Virus record (IMG/VR): IMGVR_UViG_3300030098_006079
From: a virus
Taxonomy: Duplodnaviria > Caudoviricetes
Strand: one strand, 5' to 3'
Length of the DNA stretch: 64,000 bases
Under the pieces are notes generated by a model. It searched no databases. It was not told where the DNA came from and saw only the letters and a program-made list of their open reading frames with translations. Below, piece by piece: positions 27,061 to 59,388 of this stretch. Each line of letters opens with the position of its first letter. The first letter of the stretch is position 1. Both the position numbers and the translations under genes were made by a program.

Positions 27061-27713
27061 ATAAGACTATTATTATATGTTGTCCTGGACAGTCATTTAC
27101 AGGTAAGTTTTTAACATCTCTTACATATTTGATTAGACATTTACATAGTAAAGGGTTTAAAGTTTTATTTAGTACAACATTTTCTCGTAACATATATGAA
27201 GTACGTAACAAATGTCTTATGGGTGACCCTAGTAATGGTCCTGATCAACAGTTATTTAACGGTCAAGATTATGATTACATATTATGGCTAGATGATGATA
27301 TTATTTTTACTCCAGAAGATTTTGAAAAGTTATATAAAGAGGATAAAGATGTTATATCAGGTTTGTATTTAATGGCTAATGGAACTCAGTTCGCTGCTGT
27401 TGAAGTGTGGGACGAAGAATTTTTCAAAGAAAACGGGACGTTTGAATTTCTTAATAAACAAGATATATCTCATAGGTTATTACCGTTTAGTGTTGAGTAT
27501 GTTGGTTTTGGATTTTTATTATTTAAAAAAGGAATCTTTGAGCAATTACAATATCCATGGTTTGAGCCTACATTTTTAGAGATAAAAGATTGTATTGATT
27601 TTTCTATGGAGGACGTAACTCTTTGTATAAAATTGCGCAAATTAAATATCGACGTTTATGTACATCCAGATGTTGTTGTAGGTCATCAAAAGGAAGTTGA
27701 GTTAAAAATATGA
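27057..27713 (+). CDS. GT-A (GT2-like) glycosyltransferase
   Basis: YILWLDDDIIF (DxD), VGFGFLL, MEDVTLC, VVGHQK. Confidence 0.75.
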   Translation: MNKTIIICCPGQSFTGKFLTSLTYLIRHLHSKGFKVLFSTTFSRNIYEVRNKCLMGDPSNGPDQQLFNGQDYDYILWLDDDIIFTPEDFEKLYKEDKDVISGLYLMANGTQFAAVEVWDEEFFKENGTFEFLNKQDISHRLLPFSVEYVGFGFLLFKKGIFEQLQYPWFEPTFLEIKDCIDFSMEDVTLCIKLRKLNIDVYVHPDVVVGHQKEVELKI

Positions 27714-30141: not shown

Positions 30142-33100
30142 ATGGCAACTAAAAATTTCTTTGTAAACGACGGGCTGAAAGTCAAAGGCAATACGTTACT
30201 TAACGGTAATACGTATACTGATGGAGCTTCAGCGAAACTACATGTTAAGTCAGCTCCTAACGGTACAGGTGCTAACCTAGCGAATGTTAACGGAATCCTA
30301 GTTGAGAATAGCGGTACAGGTAACACCAACTATGCTCTCAAACTCGCTTCAGGCTCCGGAAATATCTTTAATGTAAGTAACGCAGGTAACGTAGGTATTG
30401 GTGTAACTGATGCTAGTTCTATACTTCATATTGTCGGTCCTGGTACTCATCCTACGTCACTTGCTCACTTTGATACTCAATCTATTGCCCGTTTTGAAGC
30501 TGATAGTAGTAATGCCGTAAGTTTATATATTACAGAAGGTGCTGATGGATCTTATTTACAGGTCACAGATGGCACAACAGATTCAAGTACAGCTAAAGAT
30601 TTAAACTTACAACCATTCGGTGGTTGTGTTGGTATAGGTACAACTAATCCAGGTAAGAGTTTACATGTATATACTTCTGATGATATTATAAGTAAGTTTT
30701 CTAGTTCAGATGCTGGTGGTAGAATACTAATTAATGACTCTACTACCAATGCTTATATTAATGCATCTAATGGAGTTGCTTCATTAGGTCAGTGTAATGG
30801 ACTAAACAATAGTAATCTTAATATATTAAGCGCTGGACAAGTTGGTATAGGTACTACAAGTCCTGGTAATCTTTTAGAATTATATAGCTCAGCACCTGTA
30901 TTATCAATTAAGGATGGAGGGGCATATGGAACGAATGCTACCTCCTATATAGATTTTAAAGATAGTTCTTCAGTAATGTCAAGAGTAGGTGTTGCTGGTG
31001 TCGCTGGTACATTAGATGTTGATAATTTAAAAGCAAATAGTATTAGACTTCGTACTAATGGTAGTACTCAAGTTACAGTTACTAGCGCTGGTAATGTCGG
31101 TATAGGTACAACTGACCCGAATTACAGCTTAGACGTTACTTCGTCAGGTAGTCAGACTATAAGAGTAAAGTCTACAGATAATCATGCAGCTGTTAGAATT
31201 GATAGGCCATCAGATAGCTATGATAGTAATTTAATGTTTCAAACAAACGGAACTACTAAATGGCGATTAGGTCAAGGCGTAGTTACGGCAGGTGATAATT
31301 ATTTAGCTATATATGATGACATTAATGATGCTGGTCATACCACGTTTAAGGCTGGTGGTAGTGTTGGTATAGGAACAGCTGAACCAAATGAGAAGCTTAC
31401 AGTCTCAGGTAATATTAGTGCAAGTGGTATAGTATATGCTGATGCATTTAATTCAGTAACAGGCGGTACTGCAATAGATTTTAATGACAATATTGACTTA
31501 GCAGGTAATCTTACATTGAGTGGTTATGTTAGCGCTAATGGTGGTTATTGTAGTGATGAAAATGCTAATGCTAAGTTCGGTACATGTGCGTTAAACGGTC
31601 TAACAACAGGTCTGTATAACGTCGCAATAGGTACAAGCGCTCTGCGTTCAAATACTAGCGGTTGTGATAACGCTAGTGTAGGTCAAGATGCTCTATATGC
31701 TAATACAACCGGTTGCAAAAATGTAGCGTTAGGTCGAGCTGCGTTAAGGTATAATACGACTGGTAAATGGAATTCAGCAGTTGGACATACAGCTTTGTTT
31801 TGTACTACAACTGGTTGTAAAAATACTGCTAGCGGTGCATATGCTTTGCATTGTAATACAACTGGTATGGAAAACGCAGGGCATGGTTATGCTGCATTAC
31901 TTTGTAACACAACAGCTAATTATAACACTGCAGTTGGTGCTTGTTCTTTATATGCTAATACTACCGGTGCTAATAATACTGCAGTTGGTTTTAAGTCTTT
32001 AGTAACTAACACAACAGGTTGTAGAAATACAGCTAGTGGTAACTATTCTTTAAACTTTAACACAACAGGCTTTAATAATACTGCTCATGGTTTTCAAGCT
32101 TTACTTAATAATACAACTGCGAAAGGTAATACTTCTACAGGTTATTATTCTTTAAGAGCTAACACAACAGGTTGTCATAATACTGCTAGTGGTTATTACG
32201 CTTTGTACAGTAATACAACAGCTCATTATAACACAGCAGTTGGTGCGTGTGCTTTATTTGCTAACACAACAGCTGATTACAATACAGCATTTGGTTCTCA
32301 ATCGTTAAAAGCTAACACAACCGGTGGAGGTAACTTAGCACTTGGTTATGCTGCTTTAACAAATAACACAACAGCTAGTTATAACACTGCAGTTGGTTAT
32401 GCTGCTTTATTTGATAACACAACAGGTGGTTTGAATACTGCAGTAGGTAGACAAGCATTAGAAAATAATACAACCGGTGGTAAAAACACCGCTAGTGGTT
32501 ACTTCGCTTTAGGTTCTAATACAACTGGTTCTTGTAATGATGCTTTCGGTTGGAACGCTTTATTAACTAACACTACTGGTGGTTATAATACAGCGATGGG
32601 TCTTTGGGCCTTAAAACTTAACACTACTGGCTGTAAAAATGCCTCTGTAGGTTCACATTCTTTACAATCTAACACAGAGGGTTGTGTTAATACAGCAATA
32701 GGTTATCAATCTTTACAAGCTAACACAACCGCGTCTTATAATACAGCAGTCGGTAGTTGTGCCTTGTTTGATAATACAACTGGTCATTCAAATACTGCAA
32801 GTGGATTCTATTCATTAGCTAACAATACTACTGGTTGTAAAAACGTTGCTGCGGGTGCATGGTCGTTGGGTAAAAATACGTCTGGTTGCTCTAATACTGC
32901 TAGTGGATATACCTCGTTGTGGGAGAATACAACAGGTTATGGTAATGCAGCGCATGGTACGAAGTCTCTTTGTAAAAATACTACAGGTTATAGTAATATT
33001 GCTGTAGGTTCTCAAGCTCTTACAACTAACACAACTGGTCATTCAAATACTGCTAGTGGTTACTTCGCTTTAAAATGTAACACAACAGGTGGTAAAAACA

Positions 33101-36100
33101 CAGCAGTAGGTTTATGTGCTTTACATTCTAATACTACAGCTGAATACAATACTGGTATTGGTTGGCGGGCTTTACTAACTAACACAACTGGTTGTAGAAA
33201 TACTGCTACTGGTATGTATGCTTTAACCAATAACTCAACAGGTGGTTGTAATACTGCTAGTGGTAGTTATTCGTTATATGCTAATACATGTGGTAGTTGG
33301 AACGCAGCAGTTGGTTATAAGGCTCTAAAATCTAATACAACAGCTAGTTTTAATACAGCAGTTGGTACATGTTCTTTACATTCTAATATATCTGGTTCTC
33401 GTGGTACCGCAGTCGGTTATCTGGCAGCAGTAAATAACACTTGTGGTCATCATACTACTGCAATAGGTAATCAAGTTTTATATTCTAATACAACAGGTCA
33501 TAGTAATACTGGTAGTGGTAGTTATGCTTTGTACAAAAACACAACTGGTGCATGTAACCAGGCATATGGTACTCTTTCCTTGTATCATAATACTACTGGT
33601 TGTTTAAACTCGGGTTTTGGTAGATCTACTTTATGTTCCAACACAACAGGTAGTTTCAACACCGCGATAGGATCCTGCGCTTTACCTAAAAATACTACTG
33701 CTTCTGATAATGTTGCTGTTGGTTATGCAGCGTTAAAAGTTAATATAATAGGCGCCAGAAATACAGCAGTTGGTAACTGTGCTTTATGTGCTAATGTATG
33801 TGGCAACGGTAACGCAGCATTTGGTCATAAAGCTATGAGAGATACCACAAGCGGTATTTATAATACTGCCAGCGGTGCATTTTCATTACATAATAACACA
33901 ACAGGTTCAACTAATGCTGCTCATGGTAATCTTGCTTTGTACAGTAACACAACAGGAGCTAATAATACTGCAAGTGGTACAAAGTCGTTATATGATAATA
34001 CAACTGGTTGTCTGAATACTGCAATTGGTTATGAGACTTTGTATGAGAATACAACATCTAATTATAATACTGCAGTTGGTGCATGTTCTTTATATGCTAA
34101 TACAACAGGAGCTAGTTTAGTCGCAGTTGGTTATAACGCTTTAAAATCAAGCACATGCGCTAATTGTAGTACAGCAGTTGGTCATCAAGCATTAATGGAT
34201 CAAACTACAGGAGGTGGTAATACTGCGGTAGGTCAAGCAGCAGGTGAAAATGTTACTACAGGTGTAGCGAATGTTATTGTAGGTGTGAAAGCTCTTTGTA
34301 CAGCAACAGTAGCTCATTATAATACAGCTATAGGTTATCAAGCACAAAGACAAACTACTACCGGGCATTGTAATATTGCAATTGGTTATAATAGCTTACT
34401 TAATAACACAACTGCTTGTAATAATGTTGGAGTTGGTTTAGATGCTCTATACACGGGTACAACTGGTAGTCACAATACTGCTATAGGTACAAGAACATTA
34501 TATGCTAATACCACCGGCTCTAAAAATGTAGCCTTAGGTTTTAGAACTTTGTGTTCTAACACTGAAGGTTTAAACAATGTTGCTTTAGGTGCGTTTGTTC
34601 TAGATGCAAACACTACAGGTCGTTGTAATACCGCTAGTGGTTATGCAGCAATGTATAATAACACAACGGGTTGTCGTAATACTGCAGTCGGTGATTGTGC
34701 TCTACATGATAATACAACTGGTCACGATAATGTTGCTATTGGTAGACACGCTTTAGTTAACAGCACAACAGCTGGTGCTAACACAGCAGTAGGTTCATGC
34801 GCATTACTTAGTAATACCACAGGAGCATCTCTTGTAGGTATTGGTTATCTAGCACTTGCAGCTAATACTACAGGAATTAGAAATACAGCTTTAGGAGTAT
34901 ATTCTCAAAGATATACTAGTACAGGCAACTTTAATACCTCTAGTGGTTATATGTCGTTGTGCTCTAACTCTACTGGTTGTAACAATACAGCTTTTGGTGA
35001 TCTAGCTTTAAGAACTAATACAACAGCTAGTTATGCTACTGCAGTAGGTGGCTGCGCTTTACATAGTAACACTACAGGGTCATATAATACCGCTGTTGGT
35101 TTTCATGCTGCATCCTCTAATACAACAGCATTTGGTCAAACAGCTATAGGTTACCATGCATTAATTTGTAACCAGACTGGTTGCCGTAATACTGCTTTAG
35201 GTGTTTTCGCATTGTGTTGTAACGTATCTGGTTGTGATAATACAGCAAGTGGTGTATATGCTCTATATAAAAATACAGGGTCAAATAACTCTGCATATGG
35301 TTTCGCATCATTAATAACTAACAGCTCTGGTGAGTATAACACAGCAGTTGGTGGTTGTTCTTTATATGCTAATACTACTTCTTGTAACAATACTGGTATT
35401 GGTTGGATGTCCTTAAAGAGTAATACAACCGGAGCTAGTAATACAGGAGTAGGAGCTAATACATTACAGAGCAATACTACTGGTGGTAATAATGTTGCTA
35501 TAGGTGACTGTGCTTTACTTTGCAATACAACTGGTGGTCACAATATTGGTATTGGTCATGGTGCTTTATGTGATGCAACGACAGCGGGTGGTAATGTTGC
35601 GATCGGTGGTGTTGCTATGGAGAACACTACAACAGGAGAATATAATATTGCTCAAGGTAAGTATGCTCTTAATGCTAATACAACAGGTTGTCGAAATGTA
35701 GGTTTAGGTTACGCCGCTTTAATTGCTAACACAACTGCTAGTAAAAATACCGCGGTTGGTACTTGTGCTATGTATGATACCTCAACAGGTATTCTTAATA
35801 CTGCAGTTGGAAATGAAACTTTAGTAAACAACACTACAGGAAGCTACAGTACAGCAGTTGGTGCTTGTGCTTTGAAGACTAATACTACCTCTAGTTATAA
35901 CGACGCTTTTGGTATGGGTGCGTTGTGTACTAATAACGGTGGTACCCATAATGTAGCGGTAGGTGGTGTTGCTTTACGATTTAATACTACTGGTTGCAGA
36001 AACACAGCAAGTGGTCATTACGTGATGGGTAAGAACACTACAGGTTGTATGAATGTAGCTTACGGTTATTATGCATTAGTATGTAATACAACAGCTAATA

Positions 36101-39100
36101 GTAATACAGCGGTTGGTGCATGTTCTTTATATGCTAATACAACAGGTGCTAATAATACTGCTAGTGGTTATAGATCTTTAGCAAATAATACAACAGGTAG
36201 TGATAACACCGCCGTTGGGTGGTCTGCTATAAAGTCTAATACAACAGGTAGTCATAATGCTGCATTAGGTTATCAAAGTATGCAAGCTACCACAACAGGC
36301 CATTCGAATGCTGCGATTGGTAAACAAACTTTATATGCTAATACATGCGGACAAAGAAACACAGCAAGTGGTTATAGAGCTTTATTTAATAACACTTCCG
36401 GTTCTGGTTCTGTCGCACTTGGTGCATGTGCTTTATGTGGTAATACAACTGCTGGTAATAATATTGCTATAGGTAGAGGTGCTATGAGAAACAATACTAC
36501 TGGTAGTATTAATAGTGCAAGTGGTTATAAATCCTTGTACGCTAACACAACCGGTACACACAATGCCGTTCATGGTTATGAAGCTATGTGTAAGAATACA
36601 ACCGGTGGTTATAATACTGCAATCGGTACATGCGCTTTATTTAATAATACTGGTAATGATAATGTTGCATTAGGATATGCTGCTGGTATTAATAATACTT
36701 CGGGTTGTAATAATGTATTTTTAGGAACAAACTCTTGTGCATGTGATGCTACTTTATGTAATGTTGTTGCTATTGGTAAGTCAGCAGTTGCAACAGCTAC
36801 TAATCAAATCGCATTAGGTGGCTCGAGTCATACAGTAGACTTAGCTGCTTGTAAGTTAACAATTGGTGGTAGCGGTGGTACTGCAGGTTATGTAATGTGT
36901 ACTGATGGTTCTGGTAATGTTGGTTGGACGTCAATCGCTGGTGCTTCTGGAGGTGTTACTTGTGTTGCTACAGCCAATACTCATGTTGGCGATGGTTCAA
37001 TGTCTAATGTAGTTGCTCTTTCAGCTGTACATAACACAGCATATGGTTATCAATCTTTAAAAGAGCTAACATGCGGAGATTATAATACAGCCATTGGGTC
37101 ATGTTCTTTAGGTAAAACAACTACTGGGCTTAGAAATACAGCAAGTGGTTATGCAGCTTTATGGAAAAATACAACTGGTTGTGAAAATACAGCGAGTGGT
37201 ATATATGCTTTAATGAACAATACAACTGCTTCAGAGAATACAGCAGTTGGTAATAGAGCGCTTCTCACTAATAGTACAGGTTGTGCTAATACAGCAGTTG
37301 GTTCAAGCGCTCTTAGAGTCAATACAACAGGTTTAAGACATACGGCGTTTGGTGTAGAGGCTTTAAAGAACAATACAACAGGTAGCTATAATAATGCTCA
37401 AGGTTATGGTGCTCTGTTTACTAACACAACAGGTCAAACCAACGATGCATTTGGTTATGCTGCTCTGTACGCTAATACAACTGGAGGATGTAATGCCGCA
37501 TTTGGTCATGCACCCTTAGCTAAGAATACAACTGGTAATCAAAACACTGCTGTTGGTAATCTTGCTTTATGCTCTAATACAACTGGTAATTATAGTACAG
37601 CGGTAGGTACAAAATCATTATATACAAACACAACTGGTAACAACCAAGCATTTGGTTCATTTTCATTAAAGAAAAACACAACTGGTACTCTTAATAATGC
37701 ATTTGGTTATGCAGCAATGGAAGAGAATACAACAGGTGATTGTAATACTGCAATGGGTCATGCTGTATTAAACAAAAATACAACAGGTTGTAATAATACT
37801 GCCCTTGGCGTACAAGCTTTATACTGTAATACAACAGGTTGTAATAATACTGCAATTGGACGTTCGGCCTTAGAATGTCACACTTCAGGTAAGAATAATA
37901 CAGCCATGGGAACCTGGGCTTTATATAAAACTACAACCGGGCAAAGAAACATTGCTATAGGTAATAGTTCTTTAGAAAAAAATACATGTGGTTGTTGGAA
38001 TGTTGCAATCGGTTCTCGTTCTTTATATTGTAACACAACAGCTTGTGGTAACACAGCAGTCGGTGGTTGTACTTTACACACTAATTCAACAGGAACTCAG
38101 AACACAGCAAGTGGTTATGTAGCTTTAGCAAAAAACACAACTGGCGCTAATAACACAGCTAGTGGTTATAGTGCCTTACAAAAAAATACAACTGGTCATT
38201 CAAATACTGCAGCTGGTTCATGCGCATTACTTAATAACACAACTGGTTGTTTTAATAATGCTTTCGGTAAGAGAGCCTTACGATCTAACACAACAGGTAA
38301 TCATAATCTTGCTATAGGTAATGATGCTCTTTATGGAAACACAACAGGTAATTATAATACTGCTAGTGGTTATTATGCATTAGGACTTGGAGCAGCTGGT
38401 TGTGAAAATGCCGCGTTTGGTTATAAAGCAGGTATGGGTGTTAATGGTGGTAAGCATAACACTGCTGTTGGTTACGAAGCCTTATTAGCTACAGGAACAA
38501 AATGTCTTAATACTGCTATTGGTCATAAGTCTCTGACATCCCTCACAACTGGCTGTAATAATACTGGTGTTGGTTATGGTTCATTATGTAATGCTACAAC
38601 TGCTTGTGATAATACTGCGCTAGGATATGGAGCGTTTGGTGCTCTTACAACTGGTTGTAGAAACGTAGCTGTCGGTCATGGTGCTGGTAATGCAACTACC
38701 ACCGGAGCGTGCAACTTCTTTGGTGGTCATGGTGCTGGGGAGGACAACACTACCGGTCATAGTAATGTAGCAATTGGCAGACAAGCTATGAATAAAAATA
38801 CAACTGCTGCTTATAATACAGTAGTTGGTGCATGTGCTCTTTTCTGTAATACGACAACTGGTATGGCGATGGAAGCATTTGGTTTTCGAGCACTACATAG
38901 TAACACAACAGGTTCTTGTAATACGGGTATAGGTTTTTGTGCTTTATATAGTAATACAAGCGGTTGTTTTAATACCGCGAGTGGTTACAGATCGCTAGCA
39001 ACTAACACTACAGGATGTAACAACGCGTCATATGGTTCATTTACTTTAGCGGCTAATGAATGTGGTTGTTATAATACAGCAATTGGCTTTAACTCGATGA

Positions 39101-42100
39101 AGTGTAATGCATCGGGTAATCAAAACACCGCGAGTGGCTCGTATTCTTTAATGTGTACCTCCTCTGGTAATTATAATACAGCTTTTGGTTATTCAGCTGC
39201 CCTTAACAATACTACTGGAGGATTTAATACTGCAGTAGGTAGAACGTCGCTGTATAATAATACAACAGGTATTGCTAACACAGCTATAGGTATGGAAGCA
39301 TTGTACTGTAATACAACTGCTTCTTATAATGTAGCAGTAGGTTATTGCACATTAAGGACTAATAGTACTGGAGCTAAGAATACTGCCGTTGGTCAAAGCG
39401 CATTAAAATCTAGTACAACTTCCAACTACAACGCCGCATTTGGTTATCAAACATTATTCTCTAATACAACTGGTATTCAAAATACTGCAAGTGGTTCATA
39501 TTCAATGTATGATAATACTACAGGTAGTTATAATGTTGCGTATGGTCTGAATTCATTAGCTAATAACATTACAGGTTGTGCTAATACAGCTATTGGTAAC
39601 AAGACTTTAGAGACTAATACTGCTGGTCATCGTAACGTTGCAATAGGTTGTCTCGCAGGTACGACTATGACTGGTAGTGATAATACTTTCATTGGTACTG
39701 AAGCAGGAAGATATACGACATCTAGTAAGTGTCATGTAGCGATAGGTCGTAACGCAATGAGACATAATTCGACTGGTTGTCGTAATAATGTTATTGGTGC
39801 TTGGGCTTTATATAGAAACACTACAGGAACAAATAATACTGCTAGCGGTTATTATTCTCTTAATTGTAATACAACTGGTAGTAATAATAATGCTGTAGGT
39901 TTGTTTGCTTTACAATGTAGCTGTACAGCTAGTAATAATAACGCAGTAGGTTATGCAGCTTTAATGAAAAATAACGCTGCAGATAATAATGCGTTTGGCT
40001 ACGGTGCTCTACAATATAATACAACTGGTACAAAGAACACCGCTATGGGTTGTCGAGTTATGAATACTAATACAGTTGGTTCTTGTAATACAGCAATGGG
40101 TAGTGAAGCTCTATTTTATAATGAATGTGGTATTTTTAATTCGGCGTTTGGTATAGCTGGTATGTCTTCAAATACAACAGGTTGTCATAATGTTGCAGTT
40201 GGTGGTTGTGCTTTAGCTGGTAACACTACAGCGAATGATAATGTTGCAGTTGGCTTTAAAACGTTATTAGTTTCAACAACTGGTTGTGAAAACGTTGCAA
40301 TTGGTCAGCGCACATTGTGTAGTAATACTACCGGATCAACAAACACAGCTGTCGGTCAACAAGCTCTCGTAAAAAATACTACAGCTCACGACAATACAGC
40401 TGTTGGTAAGAGTAGTATGCATGACAATACAACAGGTACTCTTAATACTGCAGTAGGTAGAAACTCTCTAAATTCTAATACAACAGCTTCTTATAACACA
40501 GCAATTGGTGGTTGTGCGTTATTGACTAATACTACTGGTGCTGCTAATACAGCAAATGGTTTTCGTGCACTAGCATCTAACACTACTGCTTCAGAGAATA
40601 CTGCAAGTGGTTATGCTGCTATGCAATTAAACACAACTGGTTGTGAAAATAGTGCATTTGGTAGAAAAGCAATGTGCTGCAATACAACAGGATTTAATAA
40701 TACAGCAGTTGGAGTAGTTGCGTTAGCTAATAACTCTACCGGTTGTTATAATACTGCAGTAGGTAATAGGGCGATGCTCCTTACTACGTCTAGCTTAAAT
40801 ACAGCAGTTGGTTATGTTGCTTTATGTAAAAATACAACTGGTAATAGTCAGGTCGCTGTTGGAGCATGTGCTTTACATACTAATACAACAGGAGGTGATA
40901 ATGTTGCAATTGGTGTAGAGTCGCTAAGATTTAACACCACCGGTGCTAGTAATGTAGTAGTTGGTAAAGATGCTGCACAATGTAATACGACGGCTAATAA
41001 TAATGTAGCAATAGGTTTGAAAGCTAATGCGCTTAATAAAACCGGATTCGGTAACGTAAGTGTAGGTGCCTGCGCAGCGTATAATTCCATATGTGGTAAA
41101 AACACTGCTATTGGTACAAGTGCTTTAGTTACTAATACAACCGGTGTTTGTAATGTAGTAGTTGGTTGGGATGCAGGTTATAGCACTACTACTGGTGGGT
41201 ACAACGTATTCATGGGCTCAAGAGCTGGTTTTAGTAATACTACAGGTGCTTCAAATACATTTATTGGTAAGGATTCTGGTTACTATACAACAACTGCTAG
41301 TCATAACACTGCTGTTGGTAATGGATCTCTTCTTGTTAACTCAACTGGTAGTTATAATACTGCAAGTGGTAGTTATGCTATGTATGCAACCACAACTGGG
41401 GCACAAAATACAGCGACGGGTTATGCAGCTATGTATTGTAATACAACTGGTAATTACAACGTCGCCGTCGGTCAGAGTTCCATGTACAAAAATGTATCCG
41501 GTAGTTGGAATACAGCGTTAGGTTTTGACAGCATGTCCTGCAACGTAGGTGGTTGTTATAACACAGCGTTAGGTAGAAAAGCAATGTGCTGCAATACATA
41601 TGGTAACTGTAACGCCGCAGGCGGTAATCATGCTTTAAGCTCTAACACAACTGGTTGTGAGAATGTAGCATTTGGTTATGCACCGATGTTGAACAATACA
41701 ACAGGTAAGTGGAATACTGCAATGGGTAGTTTTTCTTTATATAATAACACAACTGCTTGTTACAACACATCGGTTGGTAGACAATCTCTTTTTAGTACTA
41801 CAACAGGTAAACAAAATACAGCTATAGGTAATAGATCTTTATATAGTAACACAACAGCTAGTTATAATACAGGTCTTGGAGATCATGCTGGTTTTGGTAT
41901 TACAAGCGGTACAAGAAACACTACTGTAGGTCATGCGTCGATGCAATGTACATCTACTGGTGATGATAACGTTGCAGTAGGTCATTATTCCTTACATTGT
42001 AACACAACAGCTAACCAGAACGTTGCAGTCGGTGCTTGTACATTAATGAACAACTTAACAGGATCTAATAATACTGCAGTTGGTCATGGTGCTTTACATT

Positions 42101-43338: not shown

Positions 43339-43403
43339 CTAGAGATCTCGAGAAAAATTTTTTTGCAAAACTCGGGGAGATTTTACATTAAGGGGTTTAA
43401 AAA

Positions 43404-43410
43404 ATAAATA
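43404..43410 (+). promoter_or_regulatory. Late promoter core
   Basis: ATAAATA before 43422. Confidence 0.55.
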
Positions 43411-43421
43411 ATTAAAGTTAT

Positions 43422-46400
43422 ATGGCGAAAATTGTTATAACTAACGGTACTATTCACTCAGATGATGATTTTAACTTAACATCTGGATCGGATGCGAATA
43501 CACGTAATAACTTCCGGATATGTAAGCAAAAAGATTCACATACCCGATTACGTTCATTATCATCCTTTAGAATAAAAACGCACGATTTACTCAATACTGG
43601 TAATGCAGAGATTTGTGGAAATCTTACTGTACATGGTACCTGTACTGTTCTTAATACTACCTTATGTTTAACAGATACAACTGCGACTGATAACTTTACT
43701 CTTGTATCTACTGATGCGGGTGCGTCTGCTGCTCCTGATTTTAAACTGTATAGAAACTCAGCCAGCCCAGCTAATAACGATTCTTTAGGCCATATTAAAT
43801 TTAGTGGTAAGGATGCTGCCGGCAATGAAACTGAGTATGCAAGTATAAAGGGTTGTATCCAATCTGTTGGTTCTGGTAGTGAGTGTGGCGCAATGTTAGG
43901 TAATGTTGTTATTAATGGGTCATCAACTGATATAATCAGAGTTGATTATGCAGGTTTGTGGACTCAAAACAACAAAAATTTGTATCTTAATGGAAGTGGT
44001 CAACTTCGAAATTACGGGGCTTGTTTAAGACTATCTACAGGAGGAGGAGACTATAAAATAACATTCGAGCCAGACTCTACTGTTAAAATGTGTTTACATG
44101 GAGGAGAGTTAACAGTTTGTAATAAAGTTTATACACCAATATTAAGAGCTACTGCTTGTACATTTTATGGTGCTTGTGGTTCTAGTAAATTATCCTCTGA
44201 TGGAGATAATATGCGCCATACTACACAGTATGGTTGTATTAATTTTGGTCCAGGTAATGCTAGTTATGCTCATATAACAACTGATAGAAGTCAATTTTAT
44301 TTTAATAAACAGCTTGTAGTCGATTCTGGCGTTGTAATGTCTTACAATGAAGATCTTAAACTTTCACGTGCTGGTAATAGTGTAAATGCTATTTATATAT
44401 GTAGCGCTCTAACAACTAGTTGTAATCCAACTAAACTATTTTCACAACAAGGACATACCATACCGCAGACTGGTAATGCTGTGTGTTGGTTGAAATTTGG
44501 ATCTTTATGTATACCGCAACACGGTTATAAGATGCGCATGAAAGTTGTTGCGAGTAATGGTTACGGTTCTAGTACAACTGACACTACTCAAGAAACAACA
44601 CTTTTATTTCAAACTGCAAACACCGGTGAAGCTAGTTCCGGTTCAAGTGTGTGTGCGTGTGTACATTCATTTATAGAAGGTAGTACGAAACGTGAATCAG
44701 ATGCTCCTTACTGTTTTATTGTACACGAAGTTAATTCCGCATTATTTGAAATATTTGGTAAATTTAACACTTATACAGGAACCGGTAGTTATTATACAAT
44801 AGAATCTGGACCTACTACATGTTGGATTGCATGTAACTCTTTTGTAGATCCTGATTCTTGTTCAGGTTCTTGTATAGTATCTATACCTAATAGAGGTACT
44901 ATATTTTGTACATCTTCCTCTACTACATGTATATGTGGTTCTGCTATTGTTCAGGGCGATATATGCATGAATAACAATTCGCGTGGTTATAAATTAGGTA
45001 CTGATACCGGTGGTTCTGGTAGTAGAGCTTTTCTAGCATTAGATTCTGACGGTTCTGATGGTATTGGAGCTGGTTCTGATTATTTCTTCGTTGCTAATGA
45101 TGGTTCTGATACCAGATTTTATAATGAAGGCCCGGAACATATAAGACTATGTGGTAGTTCGTGTGTTGCTTTTTGTAAACCGATAGCAGTTCACTGTTGC
45201 GCAAGAATAGCTACTATTAGAAACTTTACCAATACTACATACATGTGTCTTTGTGGTGGTTGTTGTTTGATAGGTGGTATACAGTTTAAAGACTGTCAAG
45301 GTTGTGACCGTGGCTGGGTGTATCATGATGGTGCTGCTAATTTTGGTTTATTATCATGTGCTGGATCTTGGGCTATTAAAATAACAGGTACTAGTAATAT
45401 ACAAAGCTCTTACACTCATTGTTTTTCCGGAAATATTGGTCTTGCTGGTGGATCTGCTAGTCGGGTGTGTATAGCTGGTAAGCGCGCTATAGAAGGTAAT
45501 AGTTGTATATTATCTTTAGGAGAAGATTGGGATTGTATATGTTTACGAGCTACTTGTACATATTCTACAGGAAACATATGTACTACTGCATGTTTACAAT
45601 CATCTGTGGTTTGTTCTACAGGTTGTGTAAAAACTCCGTTGATACAAGCGCAAGGCGGTGGAAGTTGTTTTGGTGCGCCTGCAGGTTGCGATGACTGGGA
45701 ATGTAGTCCTATTAGCATTAGAGAAAGAGGAGCAGTTTCTTCTAATCAAAGTCATGATTGTTATGCTCCTAACTTAAACTTTCATTGGGCTGGTAGAGTT
45801 TCAAACTCTTTGTATATGGCGGCGAACGGTCACTTAAAGTTTGGTTCTTATAATAGCAGCGGTTGTCCTGATGGTCCGAACGGTGTTTTCTGGGCTGGTA
45901 CTCTGTGTGGTAATACTTGTGTAAAATCTCCTATTGTTTGTGGTACAACATGTTTAGCTACTAATGTTATTTCTAGTAGTGGTAGTGCACCATCTGATTA
46001 CGGTGCATTGGCGATTGAAGGAGCCAAAGGAGGTTATGGTGGTGTTCATTTCTGTGGGTATACATTTATGGCAGCATCAGATTGCGGTGGCGGTGGTATT
46101 TATAACGATACTCACAATCAATGGGCTATATGGAATGGTGCAAATGCTGCTACTTACATTTATCATGCTGGTAATGCGAAATTACATACTATCACCAATG
46201 GTGTACGAGTATGCAAAGAATCAAACGCCGGGTATATAGACATTTGCCCATCAGGTGGTTGGGGTCATCTTATAACTAGTAACAATTGTTTCTACATGAA
46301 CGTACCATTGATGGTCAATGGAGGTAGTATTGGTTCTTATGACGAAGATTTAACGCTACAAAGAGGTTATTCCCTTACTGCTGCTGAAAGTATAAAGATT

Positions 46401-47147
46401 ACATCAGGTACTACTCATATATGTCAGCTTACAAAAGTTCATGGTTGTATATGCGCTACCTCTAACATTCAAACTGCAGGTAAGATTCATATTTGTTCTG
46501 CTCATAATTGTCTTCATATGGCGTCTATCTGTGATGCCACGAACTATAACTTTACCATATGCTCAATGTATAATTGGGCTTGCTCTCTCCGTATTACAAA
46601 CAGGGGCGTACCCATATTAAAGGTATGCTCTGGAAATTGTATTACTTCACTATGGGGTAATAATACCGAAAGGATTTGCCTTCATCCTACGGGTACAAAA
46701 ATAGTTGGAGATTTATGCGTTACAGGTCAGGTTTGTGCAGATGGTATGGAGGGAGATACTCTCACAAGCCAGACTGTATGTACAGGTACTATTTGTTTTA
46801 ATACTAGTTGTGTAACAGGGTTGGATGCGGTATATGATGTGTATGTTTCAGCTAACCCAAATTGTGGTGGTTCAACACTATATAGAGATATAGTACATAT
46901 GTCAGTATATGTTACCACAGGTTGGAGTGGTTCAGCAGTGACTAAGTACATTAACCACGTAAATAATTTTGTTAGAGGAGCTGTACATGGTTCTGGCGCC
47001 GGTTCGGTAACTGCCGTTCCTAAATTATTAGTCGGAACAACAGGTTGTGAGTGTTATGCTGCTGCTTGTGCGACTTGTTTGCAAATTCAAGTAGCGGGTG
47101 GGTCAAATAAATATGACACGTGTGTGAAAATTAAAAGAGTTTTATAA
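43422..47147 (+). CDS. Cysteine-rich tail fibre protein
   Basis: Shares the APDFKLYRNSASPA module with 28116; fibre-type beta segments; very high Cys. Confidence 0.8.
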   Translation: MAKIVITNGTIHSDDDFNLTSGSDANTRNNFRICKQKDSHTRLRSLSSFRIKTHDLLNTGNAEICGNLTVHGTCTVLNTTLCLTDTTATDNFTLVSTDAGASAAPDFKLYRNSASPANNDSLGHIKFSGKDAAGNETEYASIKGCIQSVGSGSECGAMLGNVVINGSSTDIIRVDYAGLWTQNNKNLYLNGSGQLRNYGACLRLSTGGGDYKITFEPDSTVKMCLHGGELTVCNKVYTPILRATACTFYGACGSSKLSSDGDNMRHTTQYGCINFGPGNASYAHITTDRSQFYFNKQLVVDSGVVMSYNEDLKLSRAGNSVNAIYICSALTTSCNPTKLFSQQGHTIPQTGNAVCWLKFGSLCIPQHGYKMRMKVVASNGYGSSTTDTTQETTLLFQTANTGEASSGSSVCACVHSFIEGSTKRESDAPYCFIVHEVNSALFEIFGKFNTYTGTGSYYTIESGPTTCWIACNSFVDPDSCSGSCIVSIPNRGTIFCTSSSTTCICGSAIVQGDICMNNNSRGYKLGTDTGGSGSRAFLALDSDGSDGIGAGSDYFFVANDGSDTRFYNEGPEHIRLCGSSCVAFCKPIAVHCCARIATIRNFTNTTYMCLCGGCCLIGGIQFKDCQGCDRGWVYHDGAANFGLLSCAGSWAIKITGTSNIQSSYTHCFSGNIGLAGGSASRVCIAGKRAIEGNSCILSLGEDWDCICLRATCTYSTGNICTTACLQSSVVCSTGCVKTPLIQAQGGGSCFGAPAGCDDWECSPISIRERGAVSSNQSHDCYAPNLNFHWAGRVSNSLYMAANGHLKFGSYNSSGCPDGPNGVFWAGTLCGNTCVKSPIVCGTTCLATNVISSSGSAPSDYGALAIEGAKGGYGGVHFCGYTFMAASDCGGGGIYNDTHNQWAIWNGANAATYIYHAGNAKLHTITNGVRVCKESNAGYIDICPSGGWGHLITSNNCFYMNVPLMVNGGSIGSYDEDLTLQRGYSLTAAESIKITSGTTHICQLTKVHGCICATSNIQTAGKIHICSAHNCLHMASICDATNYNFTICSMYNWACSLRITNRGVPILKVCSGNCITSLWGNNTERICLHPTGTKIVGDLCVTGQVCADGMEGDTLTSQTVCTGTICFNTSCVTGLDAVYDVYVSANPNCGGSTLYRDIVHMSVYVTTGWSGSAVTKYINHVNNFVRGAVHGSGAGSVTAVPKLLVGTTGCECYAAACATCLQIQVAGGSNKYDTCVKIKRVL

Positions 47148-47153
47148 AATACT

Positions 47154-50100
47154 ATGGGATTATTAAGTCAACAATACGGAAAACTAGTCGAGCTTACTGC
47201 AGGAAGTACTTTATGTACCCCTACTATTCGCGCGAATGCGGATAACGGTAGTGGGTGTGTACGGTTTGGTAATATATGTGTGGGTTCCGAAAACCTGTAC
47301 AACACAATACAGAGTTGCACTAACCTCCACTTTCGCGCAGCGGGTAACTGTCCTATTATTGTAGGAGACTCTGGCTCTACTCATACTAAAATCTGTAATG
47401 CAGTATGTTCTCCTATACTTTGTGGTACAACATGTCTATCTACCGCGCAAGTCATTGGTACAAAAGTTTCTGTTGGTTCTCTTAATACGAATTATGATCT
47501 TTACAATAATGGTACGAGTTATTTAAATGGTCATGTCACAATAGATGATAGTTTAGCCATTACAGGCGCGAAGATAATGAAAACTGGTGGTTATAATAAA
47601 CCAGGTATTCAAATGTGCGGTACAGGAAATTATAGTTTTTGCGACCTAAACGTTTTTCTTAAAAATACAGGTGCTGCTAACTCTGCTATATTCTCTGATT
47701 ATGAACCACATGGAGAGTGGGGATTATTTCATGATAATAATGATGACGCATTTTATATTACTGCAGGGTCATCATGTCATAATGTAGGCAGTTTTAATAT
47801 GAAAAACTGCGCTGGTACAGTTAGAACAGCGTACATTAAACAAAAATTTGTTCAAGGTAATGGTAATGCGGAGATCGGAGGGAGTCTTTCTGTAAGCCCT
47901 GATTGTTCAAATAATTATAATGGTATGGCGATTGGTTGTACTTATACTAATATTGGTGGTTGGCACACTCAGCTTAGTATGTATGGAGGCTCTCATGCAG
48001 TTGCAAGATGGAATCATGGCGCTGGTACAGATGGGGCTAATAACTCTCGGCATAACTGTATATATGCACACGTAGACAATCCATTTGTAATCTGTAGTTC
48101 TGGTAATATTAGGTTAAAACCCGGTACTGGTACGACAGTTTCGTGTGGTATGTTTTGCGCCGGTTGTGTATGTGGTGTTACTTGCGTATATTCAAATTGT
48201 GTATACGCCAACAAACTTCAGGCTGATACATGTGTTGTAACTGGTGATTTGTGTTTAACCGAAGACTATAGTGGAGACATGTCTAACGGAATACAGTTAG
48301 GTCGTAGTATTGGTATACCGCAGGCAGCATGGGGAGAGTCTGGTGTGAAAACCGGTAGAATTGAGATTGGGTTACCAACTAAAGATGGTGAAGGAGGTAG
48401 TAGTCATTTAGGTATGATTCATATGACTGTTGATGTATATGAATACGACGGTAATGATGTCTCGACTTTTATTATCGGTGGTCACAACTGGAGTTGTCGT
48501 TGGTACAATTGCGGTGCTCATATCACGGGAGGCTGCACAAACAAAACTATAAAATTAGCCTATCATGCTTGTGGTGGTACTTGTAACGGAAGGTATGTTG
48601 TTCTAATTGGAGAGTGTGATAGCTCTTGGAACTATGGTTCGGTACATGTGAGAAGAATTAATAACGGACTGTATTACAATGGTAATATGGATATGGGTAC
48701 TCCTATGTATGTTAAGAGAGTTACTTGCTCTGATAGTTATTATAATTGTACTACTAGTGATTTAAGATCAGATTCAAAAAGTATGGCAGCATACCAATAC
48801 GCTACGACCTGTGTTCACACTCCTAGGGTTTGTGCTACTACTTGTGTAAGGTCGTCTTATTTATACTCTACAGGTAATATATGTGGTACTGAAATTTGCT
48901 CTGGTTCGTGGTTTAGAAATGCTAATTCAGGTCAAGGGTTGTATAATTCAGCTACAGGGTTTCATTTTTATTCCACAGCAGCAAATATTGTTCGGATTTA
49001 TGGTGCTAGCGCTGATAATATCGGTCTACAAGGATATAGTTGTGGTGCTGCTCGTGGTTGTTTAAATTGGAATTGTTATAATCAACTCAATGTGTACGAC
49101 TCTGGTGGTAATGTTAGATTTTTAATAAACTCTAATACTGATATTAGACTGTGTAATACAACCTGTTTACATTGTAATATATATGTTGGTGGCCGAATAT
49201 TTGCTTGTACCCAGAGCGAAAGTCTCAACTTTAAAGGAGCTCGTGGTTGTTTTACTAATGAGTATATGCACCTATACAATAAAGTAGGTATAGGTCATCC
49301 ATCTGGCTGGGGGTGTGGTGAAACAAATACTCCTGATAAAGGACTTTCTACATATGGTAAAGCATGTATAGGTTATGGTGTATCTGCTTCGACTGATACA
49401 TTGAAGGTTGCAGGAGGAGTTTCAACTCTCGGTGCAAAAGCTTTATATAGTGAGAGTTATGCAAATTCTTTTTATCCTGATGCGGTTGGTACATGGAACC
49501 TTAAATCTGCATCTGGTCAGACTCACAGTAGCTTAAGATTTAGACGAGGGGATGGGAATATTGATGGTTATGTATATTCAAGTACAGGTGGGTATATAGG
49601 TTTTCTTGATTCAGCATCTTATTGGGCGTATGGTCATCAAACTAACGCGTGTCATTGGTGGAATATAAGCAATACTACGCATATGAAACTGTGTGGTAAT
49701 TGTCTTTGTCATTGTCATACTATATGTGCTCAACATTGTTTACGCGCTGATAAAGTAGAAGGCGTTTCGTGCGTGCAAAGTTGTAGATATCAACATCATT
49801 GGCGCACTATAGCTATAGGAGGAGATTATGATAAGTTCTATCCTATTGGATTTACTGTGAAAGGTGGTAATAACTCTGAAGATATATTAGAAATAGCTCA
49901 ACCTAGTGTTCACGCTCCGACCACTAGTTGCGGTGCTATGTATCTTAAATTAGGTGTTAATATTACAGGTTGGGGTCATATTAGTAATCATTATATAGTA
50001 CACAAGTATGCAACTGGTGGTACTAATTCATTAGTATCCAAGGTTAGAGCAATCGACCATTCAACATGTAGAGTTGGTGTATGGTTACGAGGTGGTCTCA

Positions 50101-51941
50101 CTTATTACTATAGATCTAGAGAAGGTACTATTGCTTGTAATATTACTGGTGGTACTACTGCGAGTTGTTTATCCTACGATAATGCAAATAACGCTTATGA
50201 TGTATCCGTACAGTATACTAGCTCTGTAGAGGATAACAATTTTGGTAATACAGGTGGTTGTAATGCTGGAAATGCTTATTTAACTCACCATAGTAGTCTA
50301 GGTACAAGTGTAGTTCTAACTACCGATAACTTACAACAGGCTTTGTGTTGTGGGTGTTGTACAAACACAGTTTGTTTAGGAAATTGTGGTGTTATAAAAA
50401 ATACAAACTTTACTACAGGGGTTGTTTGTGGTAATGATTGTGTAAGAGGTGGTAAGTTATGCTCTTCTGCATGGATATGCGCCAACACAGAAATATATCT
50501 CACTAATTGGGTAAGATTTAATACAGCGAATAAAGGTCTTTATTGGGCTGGTGCATGTCAGACACATCTTTACCCGGCGCAATCTAATTCAACTTTGTAT
50601 TTGAGATCGTGTCACTCTAATACTAGTTTAGCAATAACTACAAGCAACAATACTACTATACGTGGTTATCTTTATGGTGACTCGAGTAATAACTTTGGTT
50701 TCTTAGACTCTGATGGACAATGGGCTATAAGACACCTAGGTAATAATTGCACTGAATTTAGAATAGACAATGGAATAAAAGCAACTATATTCTCTTCATG
50801 TTTTTGTAGTAATAATGTTATATGCGCTGCTACATGTGTACATAGCGCAAAAATTTGCGGTACTCATTACGGAGATGGATCTAACTTAACTGGTGTTGGT
50901 GGTGGTTACTGTACTTGTTGTAATACCACAATAAAAACTGGCGGTACAGATTGTGGTAATATATATTTAGGTAAAGATGTGTTCGCTTGTGGTGTTGCTC
51001 AGGGTAAAACAACAGGGCATTTTAGGAACGTTGCTATAGGTGATTTTGCAATGGGTGCTCTTGGGTGTGACCCACATAGTAACGTAGTTATTGGATATAG
51101 CGCCGGCTCAACTGCTGGAACAACTTGTTGTCGAGGCTGTAACGGCTATTGTTATAATGTATACATAGGTCGTAATGCTGGGGACGGTACTTTTAATGGA
51201 TCAATCGGTGGTACCTCTAATACCGGTTCATGTAATGTGTTTGTTGGAGCATATACTGGCGGTGGTCCGCATAATGGGAAAAATAATGTTCTTATTGGAA
51301 CTAACTCTGGTTACAATATGCAGTGCGGCGCGTCTTGTAATTTGTTTTTAGGTCATGGATCTGGCGGTCATGTAACTACTGGTTGTAAGTGTGTTGTAAT
51401 TGGTTATGGTAGTGGTCAGTGTTACGACAACGCATCAATTTGCGCTGCGTGTACTCATGTAGCAACGTTAAATAAAAGCTCTGGTTCTTTTATTATTCCG
51501 CATCCTGATCCAGCAAAAACAGCGACAACTGACTTACGACATAGTTATGTCGAATCTCCTACGAGAGGTGATAATATTTATAGATGGCAAGTGGATGTTA
51601 CTAATTGTTGTAACGTTATTACGTTGCCAAGCTATTATCAATTTTTAAATGAAAATGATATGGTATGGGTATCACCTGTAGAGCATTTCGGTTCAGCATA
51701 TGGCAAAGTCACAGAAGATCAATGTTGTGCAATTATATGTACAAATGCTGACGGTAAATATAATGTTTTATTAGTAGGTACAAGATGTGACTGTATGGCT
51801 TTAAATCATTGGAAGGGTGTTGAACCACCAATGGAGAGTACATCTCCAGCACTTAGCGCTATTACTGAAGAAAATCCTAATGGGCCAGATTTTCCTCGTA
51901 GATTTGTATGTAATGTCAGAAAGCCAATGTCTGAATGGTAA
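47154..51941 (+). CDS. Cysteine-rich tail fibre protein with chaperone-like C-terminal domain
   Basis: Fibre modules, NVxIGxxAG repeats near the end, then FIIPHPDP...LRHSYVESP...VWVSP domain. Confidence 0.8.
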   Translation: MGLLSQQYGKLVELTAGSTLCTPTIRANADNGSGCVRFGNICVGSENLYNTIQSCTNLHFRAAGNCPIIVGDSGSTHTKICNAVCSPILCGTTCLSTAQVIGTKVSVGSLNTNYDLYNNGTSYLNGHVTIDDSLAITGAKIMKTGGYNKPGIQMCGTGNYSFCDLNVFLKNTGAANSAIFSDYEPHGEWGLFHDNNDDAFYITAGSSCHNVGSFNMKNCAGTVRTAYIKQKFVQGNGNAEIGGSLSVSPDCSNNYNGMAIGCTYTNIGGWHTQLSMYGGSHAVARWNHGAGTDGANNSRHNCIYAHVDNPFVICSSGNIRLKPGTGTTVSCGMFCAGCVCGVTCVYSNCVYANKLQADTCVVTGDLCLTEDYSGDMSNGIQLGRSIGIPQAAWGESGVKTGRIEIGLPTKDGEGGSSHLGMIHMTVDVYEYDGNDVSTFIIGGHNWSCRWYNCGAHITGGCTNKTIKLAYHACGGTCNGRYVVLIGECDSSWNYGSVHVRRINNGLYYNGNMDMGTPMYVKRVTCSDSYYNCTTSDLRSDSKSMAAYQYATTCVHTPRVCATTCVRSSYLYSTGNICGTEICSGSWFRNANSGQGLYNSATGFHFYSTAANIVRIYGASADNIGLQGYSCGAARGCLNWNCYNQLNVYDSGGNVRFLINSNTDIRLCNTTCLHCNIYVGGRIFACTQSESLNFKGARGCFTNEYMHLYNKVGIGHPSGWGCGETNTPDKGLSTYGKACIGYGVSASTDTLKVAGGVSTLGAKALYSESYANSFYPDAVGTWNLKSASGQTHSSLRFRRGDGNIDGYVYSSTGGYIGFLDSASYWAYGHQTNACHWWNISNTTHMKLCGNCLCHCHTICAQHCLRADKVEGVSCVQSCRYQHHWRTIAIGGDYDKFYPIGFTVKGGNNSEDILEIAQPSVHAPTTSCGAMYLKLGVNITGWGHISNHYIVHKYATGGTNSLVSKVRAIDHSTCRVGVWLRGGLTYYYRSREGTIACNITGGTTASCLSYDNANNAYDVSVQYTSSVEDNNFGNTGGCNAGNAYLTHHSSLGTSVVLTTDNLQQALCCGCCTNTVCLGNCGVIKNTNFTTGVVCGNDCVRGGKLCSSAWICANTEIYLTNWVRFNTANKGLYWAGACQTHLYPAQSNSTLYLRSCHSNTSLAITTSNNTTIRGYLYGDSSNNFGFLDSDGQWAIRHLGNNCTEFRIDNGIKATIFSSCFCSNNVICAATCVHSAKICGTHYGDGSNLTGVGGGYCTCCNTTIKTGGTDCGNIYLGKDVFACGVAQGKTTGHFRNVAIGDFAMGALGCDPHSNVVIGYSAGSTAGTTCCRGCNGYCYNVYIGRNAGDGTFNGSIGGTSNTGSCNVFVGAYTGGGPHNGKNNVLIGTNSGYNMQCGASCNLFLGHGSGGHVTTGCKCVVIGYGSGQCYDNASICAACTHVATLNKSSGSFIIPHPDPAKTATTDLRHSYVESPTRGDNIYRWQVDVTNCCNVITLPSYYQFLNENDMVWVSPVEHFGSAYGKVTEDQCCAIICTNADGKYNVLLVGTRCDCMALNHWKGVEPPMESTSPALSAITEENPNGPDFPRRFVCNVRKPMSEW

Positions 51942-57560: not shown

Positions 57561-57561
57561 T

Positions 57562-57987: not shown

Positions 57988-57988
57988 A

Positions 57989-59381: not shown

Positions 59382-59388
59382 TTAAACA

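Follow-up and report, generated by a model that had tools for sequence, protein, structure and literature searches.

The DNA analysed here, referred to as the window, is the 64,000-nucleotide stretch of the virus record IMGVR_UViG_3300030098_006079 (Duplodnaviria; Caudoviricetes), which is part of an approximately 200-kb genome of an uncultured marine T4-like phage. Three adjacent genes of the window (30142-51941) encode fibre proteins with 173, 85 and 106 cysteines (Cys), and they are followed directly by genes for a GT9-like protein, of the glycosyltransferase B (GT-B) fold, and for a sulfotransferase. The enrichment reflects selection at the protein level in the distal parts of the fibres. 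Furthermore, the arrangement recurs in other viral contigs as a module in which Cys-bearing fibres are accompanied by a GT9-like GT-B transferase and, in most cases, by a sulfotransferase of the 3'-phosphoadenosine-5'-phosphosulfate (PAPS) type. Tail fibres set the host choice of a phage and the survival of its particle. Since related fibres are nearly free of Cys and the switch to 4-8% Cys is recurrent in ocean and aquatic contigs, a fibre-surface chemistry beyond current phage biology is implied, and the position of the Cys-studded fibres beside transferase genes points to an undescribed covalent one. The reading that we favour, with a probability of about 0.35, is that the thiols are acceptor sites for the neighbouring transferases.

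Cysteine enrichment of the fibre proteins

Four fibre-like genes lie in succession on the + strand from 28116 to 51941, and the transferase genes come next. The features are as follows (aa, amino acids).

28116..30056, + strand: 646-aa Cys-poor fibre protein, 5 Cys (0.77%); an internal control that contains the paralogous module
30142..43338, + strand: giant fibre protein, 4398 aa, 173 Cys (3.93%)
30142..31548, + strand: Cys-poor N-terminus of the giant fibre (469 aa, 2 Cys), presumably proximal and used for attachment
31567..42816 (ends approximate), + strand: about 220 copies of a 17-aa repeat in the giant fibre, Cys about 4%
43422..47147, + strand: 1241-aa fibre protein with 85 Cys (6.85%); similar to cyanophage tail fibres over residues 43-191
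47154..51941, + strand: 1595-aa fibre protein, 106 Cys (6.65%); CxxxC enriched (z = 4.3)
51471..51833, + strand: conserved C-terminal domain of the 1595-aa fibre, the basis for collecting 79 IMG/VR loci
51978..53045, + strand: 355-aa GT9-like (GT-B fold) protein, starting 36 nt after the last fibre gene
53045..53863, + strand: 272-aa sulfotransferase (Pfam Sulfotransfer_3, E = 1e-13), overlapping the stop of the GT9-like gene by one base

The three Cys-rich genes are best explained as encoding distal, exposed parts of the tail fibre, the proximal parts being Cys-poor. A first-pass annotation of the window had described this enrichment from hand counts. The enrichment proves stronger than described there, and all the counts were reproduced: 17 Cys in 130 aa at 45237-45626, two in the N-terminal 465 aa of the giant protein and five in each of the proteins at 9768 (1240 aa) and 28116 (646 aa). 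All other open reading frames (ORFs) counted in the window, 19 besides the four fibre-like genes, contain 0-2.3% Cys. The same annotation had seen the change within a paralogous module, and indeed the 646- and 1241-aa proteins are 51% identical over 96 aa with His, Val, Thr or Asp opposite Cys. In the alignment of the N-terminal module, Cys stands opposite Asp more often than opposite any other residue.

Of every 100 codons in frame 1, TGT and TGC (TGY) make up 4.3-6.8 in the Cys-rich parts and 0.4-0.8 in the Cys-poor fibre parts, whereas the other two frames and the third-position composition are alike in both. The enrichment is thus confined to the reading frame, which places the selection at the protein level and rules out a mutational or compositional bias. 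An assembly artefact was also ruled out, as ENA, Logan and Tara assemblies all contain an identical 1595-aa protein, and half or more of the sampled words of its DNA are present in at least nine marine metagenome runs, which belong to three studies or more.

Inspection of the N-termini of the fibre proteins revealed no signal peptide; export by this route was therefore rejected, and the fibres would meet cytoplasmic enzymes. Their charge also differs from that of Cys-poor fibre-like proteins: Asp and Glu together account for 3.3% of the giant fibre and 6.1-6.7% of the two smaller Cys-rich fibres, compared with 9.6-11.3%. Such a drop would fit Cys bearing a negatively charged modification, although few positions lie behind it.

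Placement and conservation of the cysteines

The repeat unit of the giant fibre is N-T-A-x-G-x-x-A-L-x-x-N-T-T-G-x-x, with an autocorrelation of 0.42 at lag 17, and it matches PHROG families named virion structural protein or tail spike (phrog_23837, 6002 and 4636; E = 2e-159 to 9e-105). No Pfam family, including YadA-head PF05658 and Peptidase_S74, was found on residues 1-1200 or on the last 499 residues of the protein, although several homologues do carry PF13884, and sequence searches of the PDB with the repeats gave no match even at E = 10. Nearly all Cys lie at the variable phases 7, 10, 11, 16 and 17, and none in the conserved columns; at phase 16, 41 of 153 clean units (27%) have Cys. 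The fixed positions 5, 13 and 17 named in the first-pass annotation equal phases found here after a register shift of 11. Among the 164 units in clean register, 65 hold no Cys, 80 hold one, 16 hold two and three hold three, and the Cys are dispersed along the fibre more regularly than at random, at about one per 17-aa repeat. The variable positions of the repeat are probably exposed to solvent.

For the two smaller fibres no family was found in Pfam, PHROGs or NCBIfam, and tblastn against cultured phages gave no match for the 1595-aa protein; the likeness of the 1241-aa protein to cyanophage tail fibres is limited to the segment listed above. In both, Ile, Val or Leu stand at positions -1, +1 and +5 relative to Cys, as on beta-strands. 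The spacing CxxxC is enriched (z = 4.3 in the 1595-aa protein and 2.2 in the other), as are spacings of 7 and 11 residues, and a recurring motif is C-G-T-T-C-V-x-S-P-I-V-C-G-T-T-C. The CxxxC elements are present as pairs on strands rather than as long CXXX runs, and CC and CxC runs form dense patches in both proteins. An AlphaFold2 (AF2) model of residues 540-960 of the 1241-aa protein, built with nine homologues, was unusable, with a predicted local distance difference test score (pLDDT) of 31.

The nine members of the 1241-aa family contain 5.8-6.9% Cys, with 52 invariant and 71 variable Cys columns. Their Cys identity of 81% lies inside the range of the other residue types (62-85%), and the replacements at variable columns are Tyr, Ala, Asn, Thr, Gly, Arg, Ser and Lys. 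In this family, Cys content is thus conserved more than Cys position. In the C-terminal domain of the 1595-aa fibre, Cys stands opposite Thr, Gly, Lys or Glu of Cys-free members: the segments N-C and Q-C-C-L-V-I-C-S-N of Cys-rich members correspond to D-G and Q-T-T-L-T-V-T-A-N in Cys-free members, so that Cys replaces alternating Thr along a strand. The fold of this domain does not need Cys, as the same domain occurs Cys-free.

Distribution among related fibres

Close homologues of the two smaller fibres were all Cys-rich in a collection of 5.8 billion proteins, where more than 40 clusters from ENA, JGI, Logan and Tara have 5-8% Cys at identities down to 34%. A chimaeric protein of 1741 aa that shares only the two ends has 3.8% Cys, and proteins that share just one module have 0-0.8%, except for one group of four with 2.0%. 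That 5-8% is kept at such distances despite the turnover of positions, together with the frame specificity, bears out the earlier suggestion of selection for Cys.

The family of the 17-aa repeat is far larger, with 44,131 representatives at E <= 0.001. Among its best 150 members the median Cys content is 0.17%; 121 lie under 0.5% and 11 over 2%. In these 11 proteins Cys occupies the same variable phases, where the 121 Cys-poor relatives have Ser, Asn, Gln, Tyr or Ala. High-scoring Cys-poor repeat proteins were also seen in bacterial chromosomes (loci L093 and L094), beside a tRNA synthetase, RuvA and outer-membrane proteins, and from its sequence the repeat appears to be common to cellular adhesins and phage fibres. 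Two proteins looked up as Cys-poor controls proved to be genes of bacterial chromosomes and were set aside.

A scan of IMG/VR found no exact relative of the whole 1595-aa protein, and the alignment of its C-terminal domain retrieved the 79 loci. The 60 fibre ORFs of at least 400 aa that carry this domain form a continuum of Cys contents from 0 to 7.4%, with 15 over 4%, 24 at 2-4%, seven at 1-2% and 14 under 1%. The highest Cys values of the analysis belong to ORFs of 1618 aa (7.8%) and 1686 aa (8.2%) on the IMG/VR contigs L110 (262 kb) and L132 (385 kb), which lie at most 10 kb from a GT9-like gene. Cultured phages gave no match to the Cys-rich fibre trait. Whether similar Cys contents are common in homologous fibres, which the first-pass annotation had named as grounds for giving up its idea, accordingly has a divided answer: they are common in uncultured viruses, where 39 of the 60 fibres exceed 2%, but the repeat family has its median at 0.17% and cultured phages yield none. 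By these sequence comparisons the trait is frequent in the pool of uncultured aquatic viruses and rare in the wider families.

Co-occurrence of Cys-bearing fibres and transferases

For non-redundant IMG/VR fibres with enough flanking sequence, a GT9-like homologue was sought within 10 kb downstream. It was present for 31 of 33 fibres with at least 1% Cys and for one of 12 with less than 1% (Fisher p = 9e-8). One of the two exceptions, with 6.3% Cys (locus L052), has a GT9-like gene about 16 kb upstream in the same record, and a complete (100%) record of 201 kb with a Cys-poor fibre has none. The sulfotransferase homologue accompanies 23 of the 33 Cys-bearing fibres and one of the 12 Cys-poor fibres. 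The count was also made starting from the GT9-like gene: among 59 non-redundant IMG/VR loci that have it, 45, some of them on contigs of 260-385 kb, also contain an ORF with a length of 400 aa or more and a Cys content of 2% or more; comparison with a GT9-negative background, a small and partly incomplete set, gave p = 0.02.

The association extends to different genome backbones. In a phage with a 2556-aa tape measure, an upstream fibre has 0.2-0.3% Cys and the last fibre, which precedes the GT9-like gene, has 5.1-6.6%. On a 363-kb JGI/NCBI contig (L009:4593-15346), a GT9-like gene of 37% identity directly precedes three ORFs of 5.5, 4.9 and 4.4% Cys that have only the generic repeat in common with the fibres of the window. 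Its relative L091:2521-13581 has the same layout, a GT9-like gene before consecutive Cys-rich fibre-like ORFs; taken together, the two contigs have two or three such ORFs with 4.2-5.5% Cys and GT9-like genes 37-39% identical to that of the window. The GT9-like gene adjoins a fibre in L001 and L003 as well as in L009 and L091. The L009 contig also encodes a family-B DNA polymerase (about 25% identity to that of any cultured phage), an SNF2 helicase and GIY-YIG endonucleases, and could belong to a jumbo phage or a giant virus.

The closest public record with the module is the single-virus genome Marine virus AG-345-L05 (MH319754.1, Kyanoviridae; locus L006). It has a GT9-like homologue of 36% identity, a distant sulfotransferase and moderately Cys-rich fibre-like ORFs (1650 aa, 2.85%).

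The GT9-like protein and the sulfotransferase

The 355-aa protein has 612 metagenomic homologue clusters. Its AF2 model, based on 33 homologues, has a pLDDT of 82.5 and a predicted template-modelling score (pTM) of 0.81. The best Foldseek matches of the model, all with probability 1.0, are 3TOV (E = 1e-10, template-modelling score (TM) 0.56), 1PSW (WaaF, E = 9e-9), TibC (chains at E about 1e-6, TM 0.48) and WaaC. The modelled protein thus folds as a GT-B enzyme, closest to the GT9 heptosyltransferases. Sequence searches returned no Pfam family at E <= 0.001, Glyco_transf_9 included, no NCBIfam match at E <= 0.1 and, with the family profile, no match in the PDB.

The GT9 sugar-nucleotide motif D-S/T-G-x-x-H...A-A-L-x-R-P was compared with the family by hhalign, which sets the segment I-D-S-F-A-Q-H-A-A-V-A-L-D-R-P on the motif of WaaC and WaaF at low probability in single comparisons (E = 0.12 and 0.026). 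Asp211, Ser212 and His216 of this segment are invariant. Also invariant, in 33 sequences, is Gly14-Lys15, which by eye stands opposite the G-D of WaaC and WaaF. The Asp of this motif in WaaC (Asp13) is the catalytic base. An invariant Lys in its place suggests an altered mechanism or acceptor, or perhaps lost catalysis; a thiolate acceptor would need a base less, which would fit the change from GD to GK.

The sulfotransferase scores 52.4 bits against Sulfotransfer_3 (cut-off 27) and 44 bits against Sulfotransfer_1 (cut-off 22). Homologues are present in 32 related IMG/VR loci and usually adjoin the GT9-like gene directly.

A proposed route of fibre modification

In the route that we propose, selection would swap variable, apparently surface-exposed Ser, Thr, Asn, Asp and Lys residues for Cys. 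The fibres would fold in the reducing cytoplasm with their thiols free, and the GT9-like enzyme would take these as acceptors to form an S-linked sugar. The sulfotransferase would then place sulfate on the sugar or on the protein, and the virion would leave the cell with a capped, stable and negatively charged fibre surface that bears no reactive thiols. Action of the GT9-like enzyme on the fibres, Cys rather than Ser or Thr as acceptor and the role of the sulfotransferase are the steps we infer. The ranking of explanations that we adopt runs from acceptor sites through disulfides, free thiols and metal binding to hitch-hiking, and acceptor sites stand first because they alone explain both the site pattern and the gene association. 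Among the four uses for the thiols that the first-pass annotation had listed, this one gained the most: the neighbouring gene has a GT9-like fold, tracks Cys-bearing fibres across genome backbones and usually comes with a sulfotransferase, while the acceptor role itself is drawn from these associations.

Several points weigh against it. To our knowledge, no GT9 or other bacterial or phage GT-B enzyme glycosylates Cys, and the S-glycosyltransferases of glycocins are GT-A enzymes that act on small peptides. Ser and Thr, on which TibC/AAH-type enzymes ordinarily act, are very abundant in the fibres, and where Cys is densest, as in the CC and CxC runs of the two smaller proteins, the pattern suggests knots or metal sites more than sites of glycosylation. 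The placing of the protein in GT9 comes from the predicted fold, with Pfam and NCBIfam silent, and since the catalytic Asp is missing the protein could even be no enzyme. One locus has fibres of 3.0-3.5% Cys and no GT9-like homologue within 10 kb. Finally, the best tree of the C-terminal domain has six changes in each trait and, by eye, about five sister contrasts that agree and none that is opposite, but the domain is short and the well-supported branches force only one change per trait, so that shared ancestry may lie behind the co-occurrence; shared hosts may do the same.

The full proposal, that aquatic phages of several lineages coat their receptor-binding fibres with S-linked sulfated sugars by means of Cys-rich fibres, a GT9-derived transferase with Asp changed to Lys and a sulfotransferase, is a long shot, and that the fibre and transferase module is a new modification system is likewise improbable on present odds. 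If true, it would be a new viral protein modification pathway, with the first GT-B cysteine glycosyltransferase outside eukaryotes.

Alternative explanations

Disulfide cross-linking is the tentative second choice. Thiols that are reduced in the cytoplasm would oxidise in seawater after lysis, forming inter-chain or inter-fibre bonds that stiffen and protect the fibres, and the transferases would decorate Ser and Thr independently as part of an 'extracellular hardening package'. Disulfides have the highest prior for any Cys-rich extracellular protein and phage precedents in Pam3 (PMC9942802) and Jabs (preprint PMC13419713). In the 1241-aa family, the Cys conservation of 81% is above the average and 52 columns are invariant; CxxxC and 7- and 11-residue spacings are enriched, and the Ile, Val and Leu neighbours of Cys in the two smaller proteins are as on beta-strands.

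The tests of pairing did not support it. In the giant fibre, Cys at the same phase of consecutive repeats is at or below chance, with phases 6/7 avoided (none observed, 3.7 expected), and no cross-corner pair at offsets 0-3 exceeds z = 2.1 in about 50 tests. The rung-to-rung ladders that the first-pass annotation had expected from fixed positions were rejected on these neighbour-pair counts. Covariation analysis detected no paired gain or loss of Cys: 25% of the variable Cys columns have a co-varying partner, compared with 34-42% for most control residues (Tyr, 19%). No bias towards even numbers was found, the count being even in 24 of 46 Cys-rich proteins, and the C-terminal domain also exists Cys-free. 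Two Cys four apart on one strand are too distant to bond each other. A search for the Erv1/ALR oxidase (PF04777) was silent in four related IMG/VR records, 48-90% complete, as it was in the control genomes, and the other ORFs of the window contain no thioredoxin-type or radical S-adenosylmethionine (SAM) motif (CxxxCxxC). The link with the GT9-like gene is also left unexplained. Overall, the Cys features misfit both a classical set of intrachain disulfides and metal sites, and they fit independent surface sites. Nevertheless, symmetric inter-chain bonds would be compatible with absent signals of pairing, parity and covariation, and disulfides may well form where the two smaller fibres have their dense CC and CxC runs, even if the dispersed sites are modified. 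The disulfide armour proposed in the first-pass annotation hence keeps some standing, with no positive support from spacing, covariation or parity.

Free thiols as a working surface are an unlikely explanation. They could exchange with disulfides of a host envelope protein or scavenge photochemical oxidants in sunlit water, and the single, dispersed Cys at variable positions without a pairing signal, in DNA recovered from at least nine marine metagenome runs of at least three studies, would suit such a role. However, thiols oxidise quickly at the pH of seawater, hundreds of them risk aggregation and the link with the transferases goes unexplained.

Metal binding is less likely again. In this case Cys together with His would load Fe, Zn, Cu or Cd on the fibre, as in the iron-binding fibre tips of T4 and the 'Ferrojan horse' idea, which has also been applied to the tail fibre of a marine Alteromonas phage (PMC11705849). 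His is raised in the two smaller proteins (2.7-3.3%, compared with 1.4-1.6% in Cys-poor fibres), and one patch dense in Cys and His lies at about residues 846-878 of the 1595-aa protein. Nevertheless, the neighbourhood of Cys shows no excess of His (z = 0.1, 0.1 and -0.8), Cys mostly stand alone instead of in groups of two to four, and their positions turn over freely. Cys-His metal motifs were rejected on this lack of clustering, which leaves the suggested metal loading of the virion unsupported.

The least probable explanation is that the thiols have no function and that the Cys content, tolerated and not selected, hitch-hikes as a lineage trait within a single pool of recombining fibre modules. 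It draws on the continuum of 0-7.4% Cys in the domain family, the replaceable single sites and a tree whose well-supported branches force only one change per trait. It is opposed by the median of 0.17% Cys in related fibres, the frame-specific enrichment, the 5-8% Cys held across more than 40 clusters to 34% identity, the two base changes needed from Thr to Cys and the high Cys of unrelated proteins in the same genomes but not of their neighbours.

Genomic context

The NrdA protein of the window is 59% identical to those of the Pelagibacter myophages HTVC008M and Mosig and 57-58% identical to cyanomyovirus NrdA. Besides this ribonucleotide reductase, neighbouring genes encode a baseplate-hub-like protein, which has no match in cultured phages by tblastn, a Lon-like protease and an endolysin-like protein. 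No near-identical record was found among 50,697 phage genomes.

On the 3' side of the fibre block, genes at 57553-61365 could supply precursors for fibre decoration or belong to unrelated nucleotide metabolism: an ORF with weak likeness to HAD phosphatases, an ATP-grasp enzyme similar to PurT (E = 6e-59) and a small cupin that resembles sugar isomerases. Just 5' of the fibre genes, a 218-aa ORF (27057-27713) has a faint GT2 match under the cut-off (E = 1e-3), and no homologue of it was seen among related IMG/VR loci. A denV-like pyrimidine-dimer DNA glycosylase (63107-63550, E = 5e-20) and tRNA genes for Leu(TAA) and Thr(TGT), at 59834-59920 and 61371-61446, were also identified.

A near relative of the window phage is the 119-kb record IMGVR_UViG_3300017912_003441 (loci L012/L095). 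Its GT9-like gene, sulfotransferase and following small genes are 93-98% identical to those of the window, and the C-terminal domain of its last fibre only 64%. From this pair, fibre modules would appear to be exchanged faster than their enzyme partners.

Comparison with known systems

No description of fibres of this Cys-rich kind was found in the literature. The first-pass annotation knew of no phage system like this, but disulfide-linked phage tails have been published. In cyanophage Pam3, disulfides link the fibres to the baseplate, each fibre chain docking on Cys-rich wedge loops through one Cys of its N-terminal helix (PMC9942802), and the virion of mycobacteriophage Jabs has about 1,700 disulfides (preprint PMC13419713). 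Both likewise involve Cys chemistry on fibres or whole virions assembled in the cytoplasm. Unlike in Pam3, the N-terminal parts in the window are Cys-poor, and 360 Cys lie in the distal 6,800 residues with no pairing signature.

CXXX-repeat systems with radical-SAM enzymes resemble the window in having CxxxC spacing beside modifying enzymes. This target system was rejected, since the CXXX-repeat model (TIGR04114-type) gave no NCBIfam match, and the other ORFs of the window contain no CxxxCxxC maturase motif; CxxxC occurs here as pairs on strands.

Cys is an established sugar acceptor for the glycocin enzymes SunS, ThuS and GccA. Mycobacteriophage glycans are O-linked, on capsid and tail-tube proteins. 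That phage-encoded transferases decorate virion proteins is established for mycobacteriophages (Freeman et al. 2023, PMC10527164). Unlike the module of the window, neither the glycocin nor the mycobacteriophage systems have Cys-enriched fibres or a sulfotransferase.

The best fold matches of the 355-aa protein are WaaC, WaaF and the Veillonella GT9 structure 3TOV, with which the motif D-S/T-x-x-x-H...A-L-D/N-R-P aligns weakly. The phage gene differs in that it lies in a late fibre operon of a lytic-type phage rather than in a lipopolysaccharide core cluster, the Pfam GT9 family is silent on it and the Asp of GD is by eye opposite Lys. The arrangement of genes is closest to that of the E. coli autotransporter heptosyltransferases, TibC with TibA and AAH with AIDA-I, in which a GT9-like GT-B gene likewise lies beside a long repeat adhesin (beta-helical in those systems); action in the cytoplasm would follow. 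TibC modifies Ser and carries an iron-binding Cys cluster, and dodecameric assembly is a further mark of the TibC/AAH enzymes. In contrast, the phage protein has only two Cys and no match to TibC or AAH at the sequence level, and its presence tracks Cys rather than Ser or Thr, a comparison made from genes only.

If the thiols form disulfides, the redox-dependent tail assembly of Pam3 and Jabs would be extended to abundant marine myoviruses. If they are acceptors, the fibres would carry a new virion decoration made by a new enzyme activity, which would bear on phage decay, grazing and adsorption at sea and on the engineering of stable glyco-conjugates.

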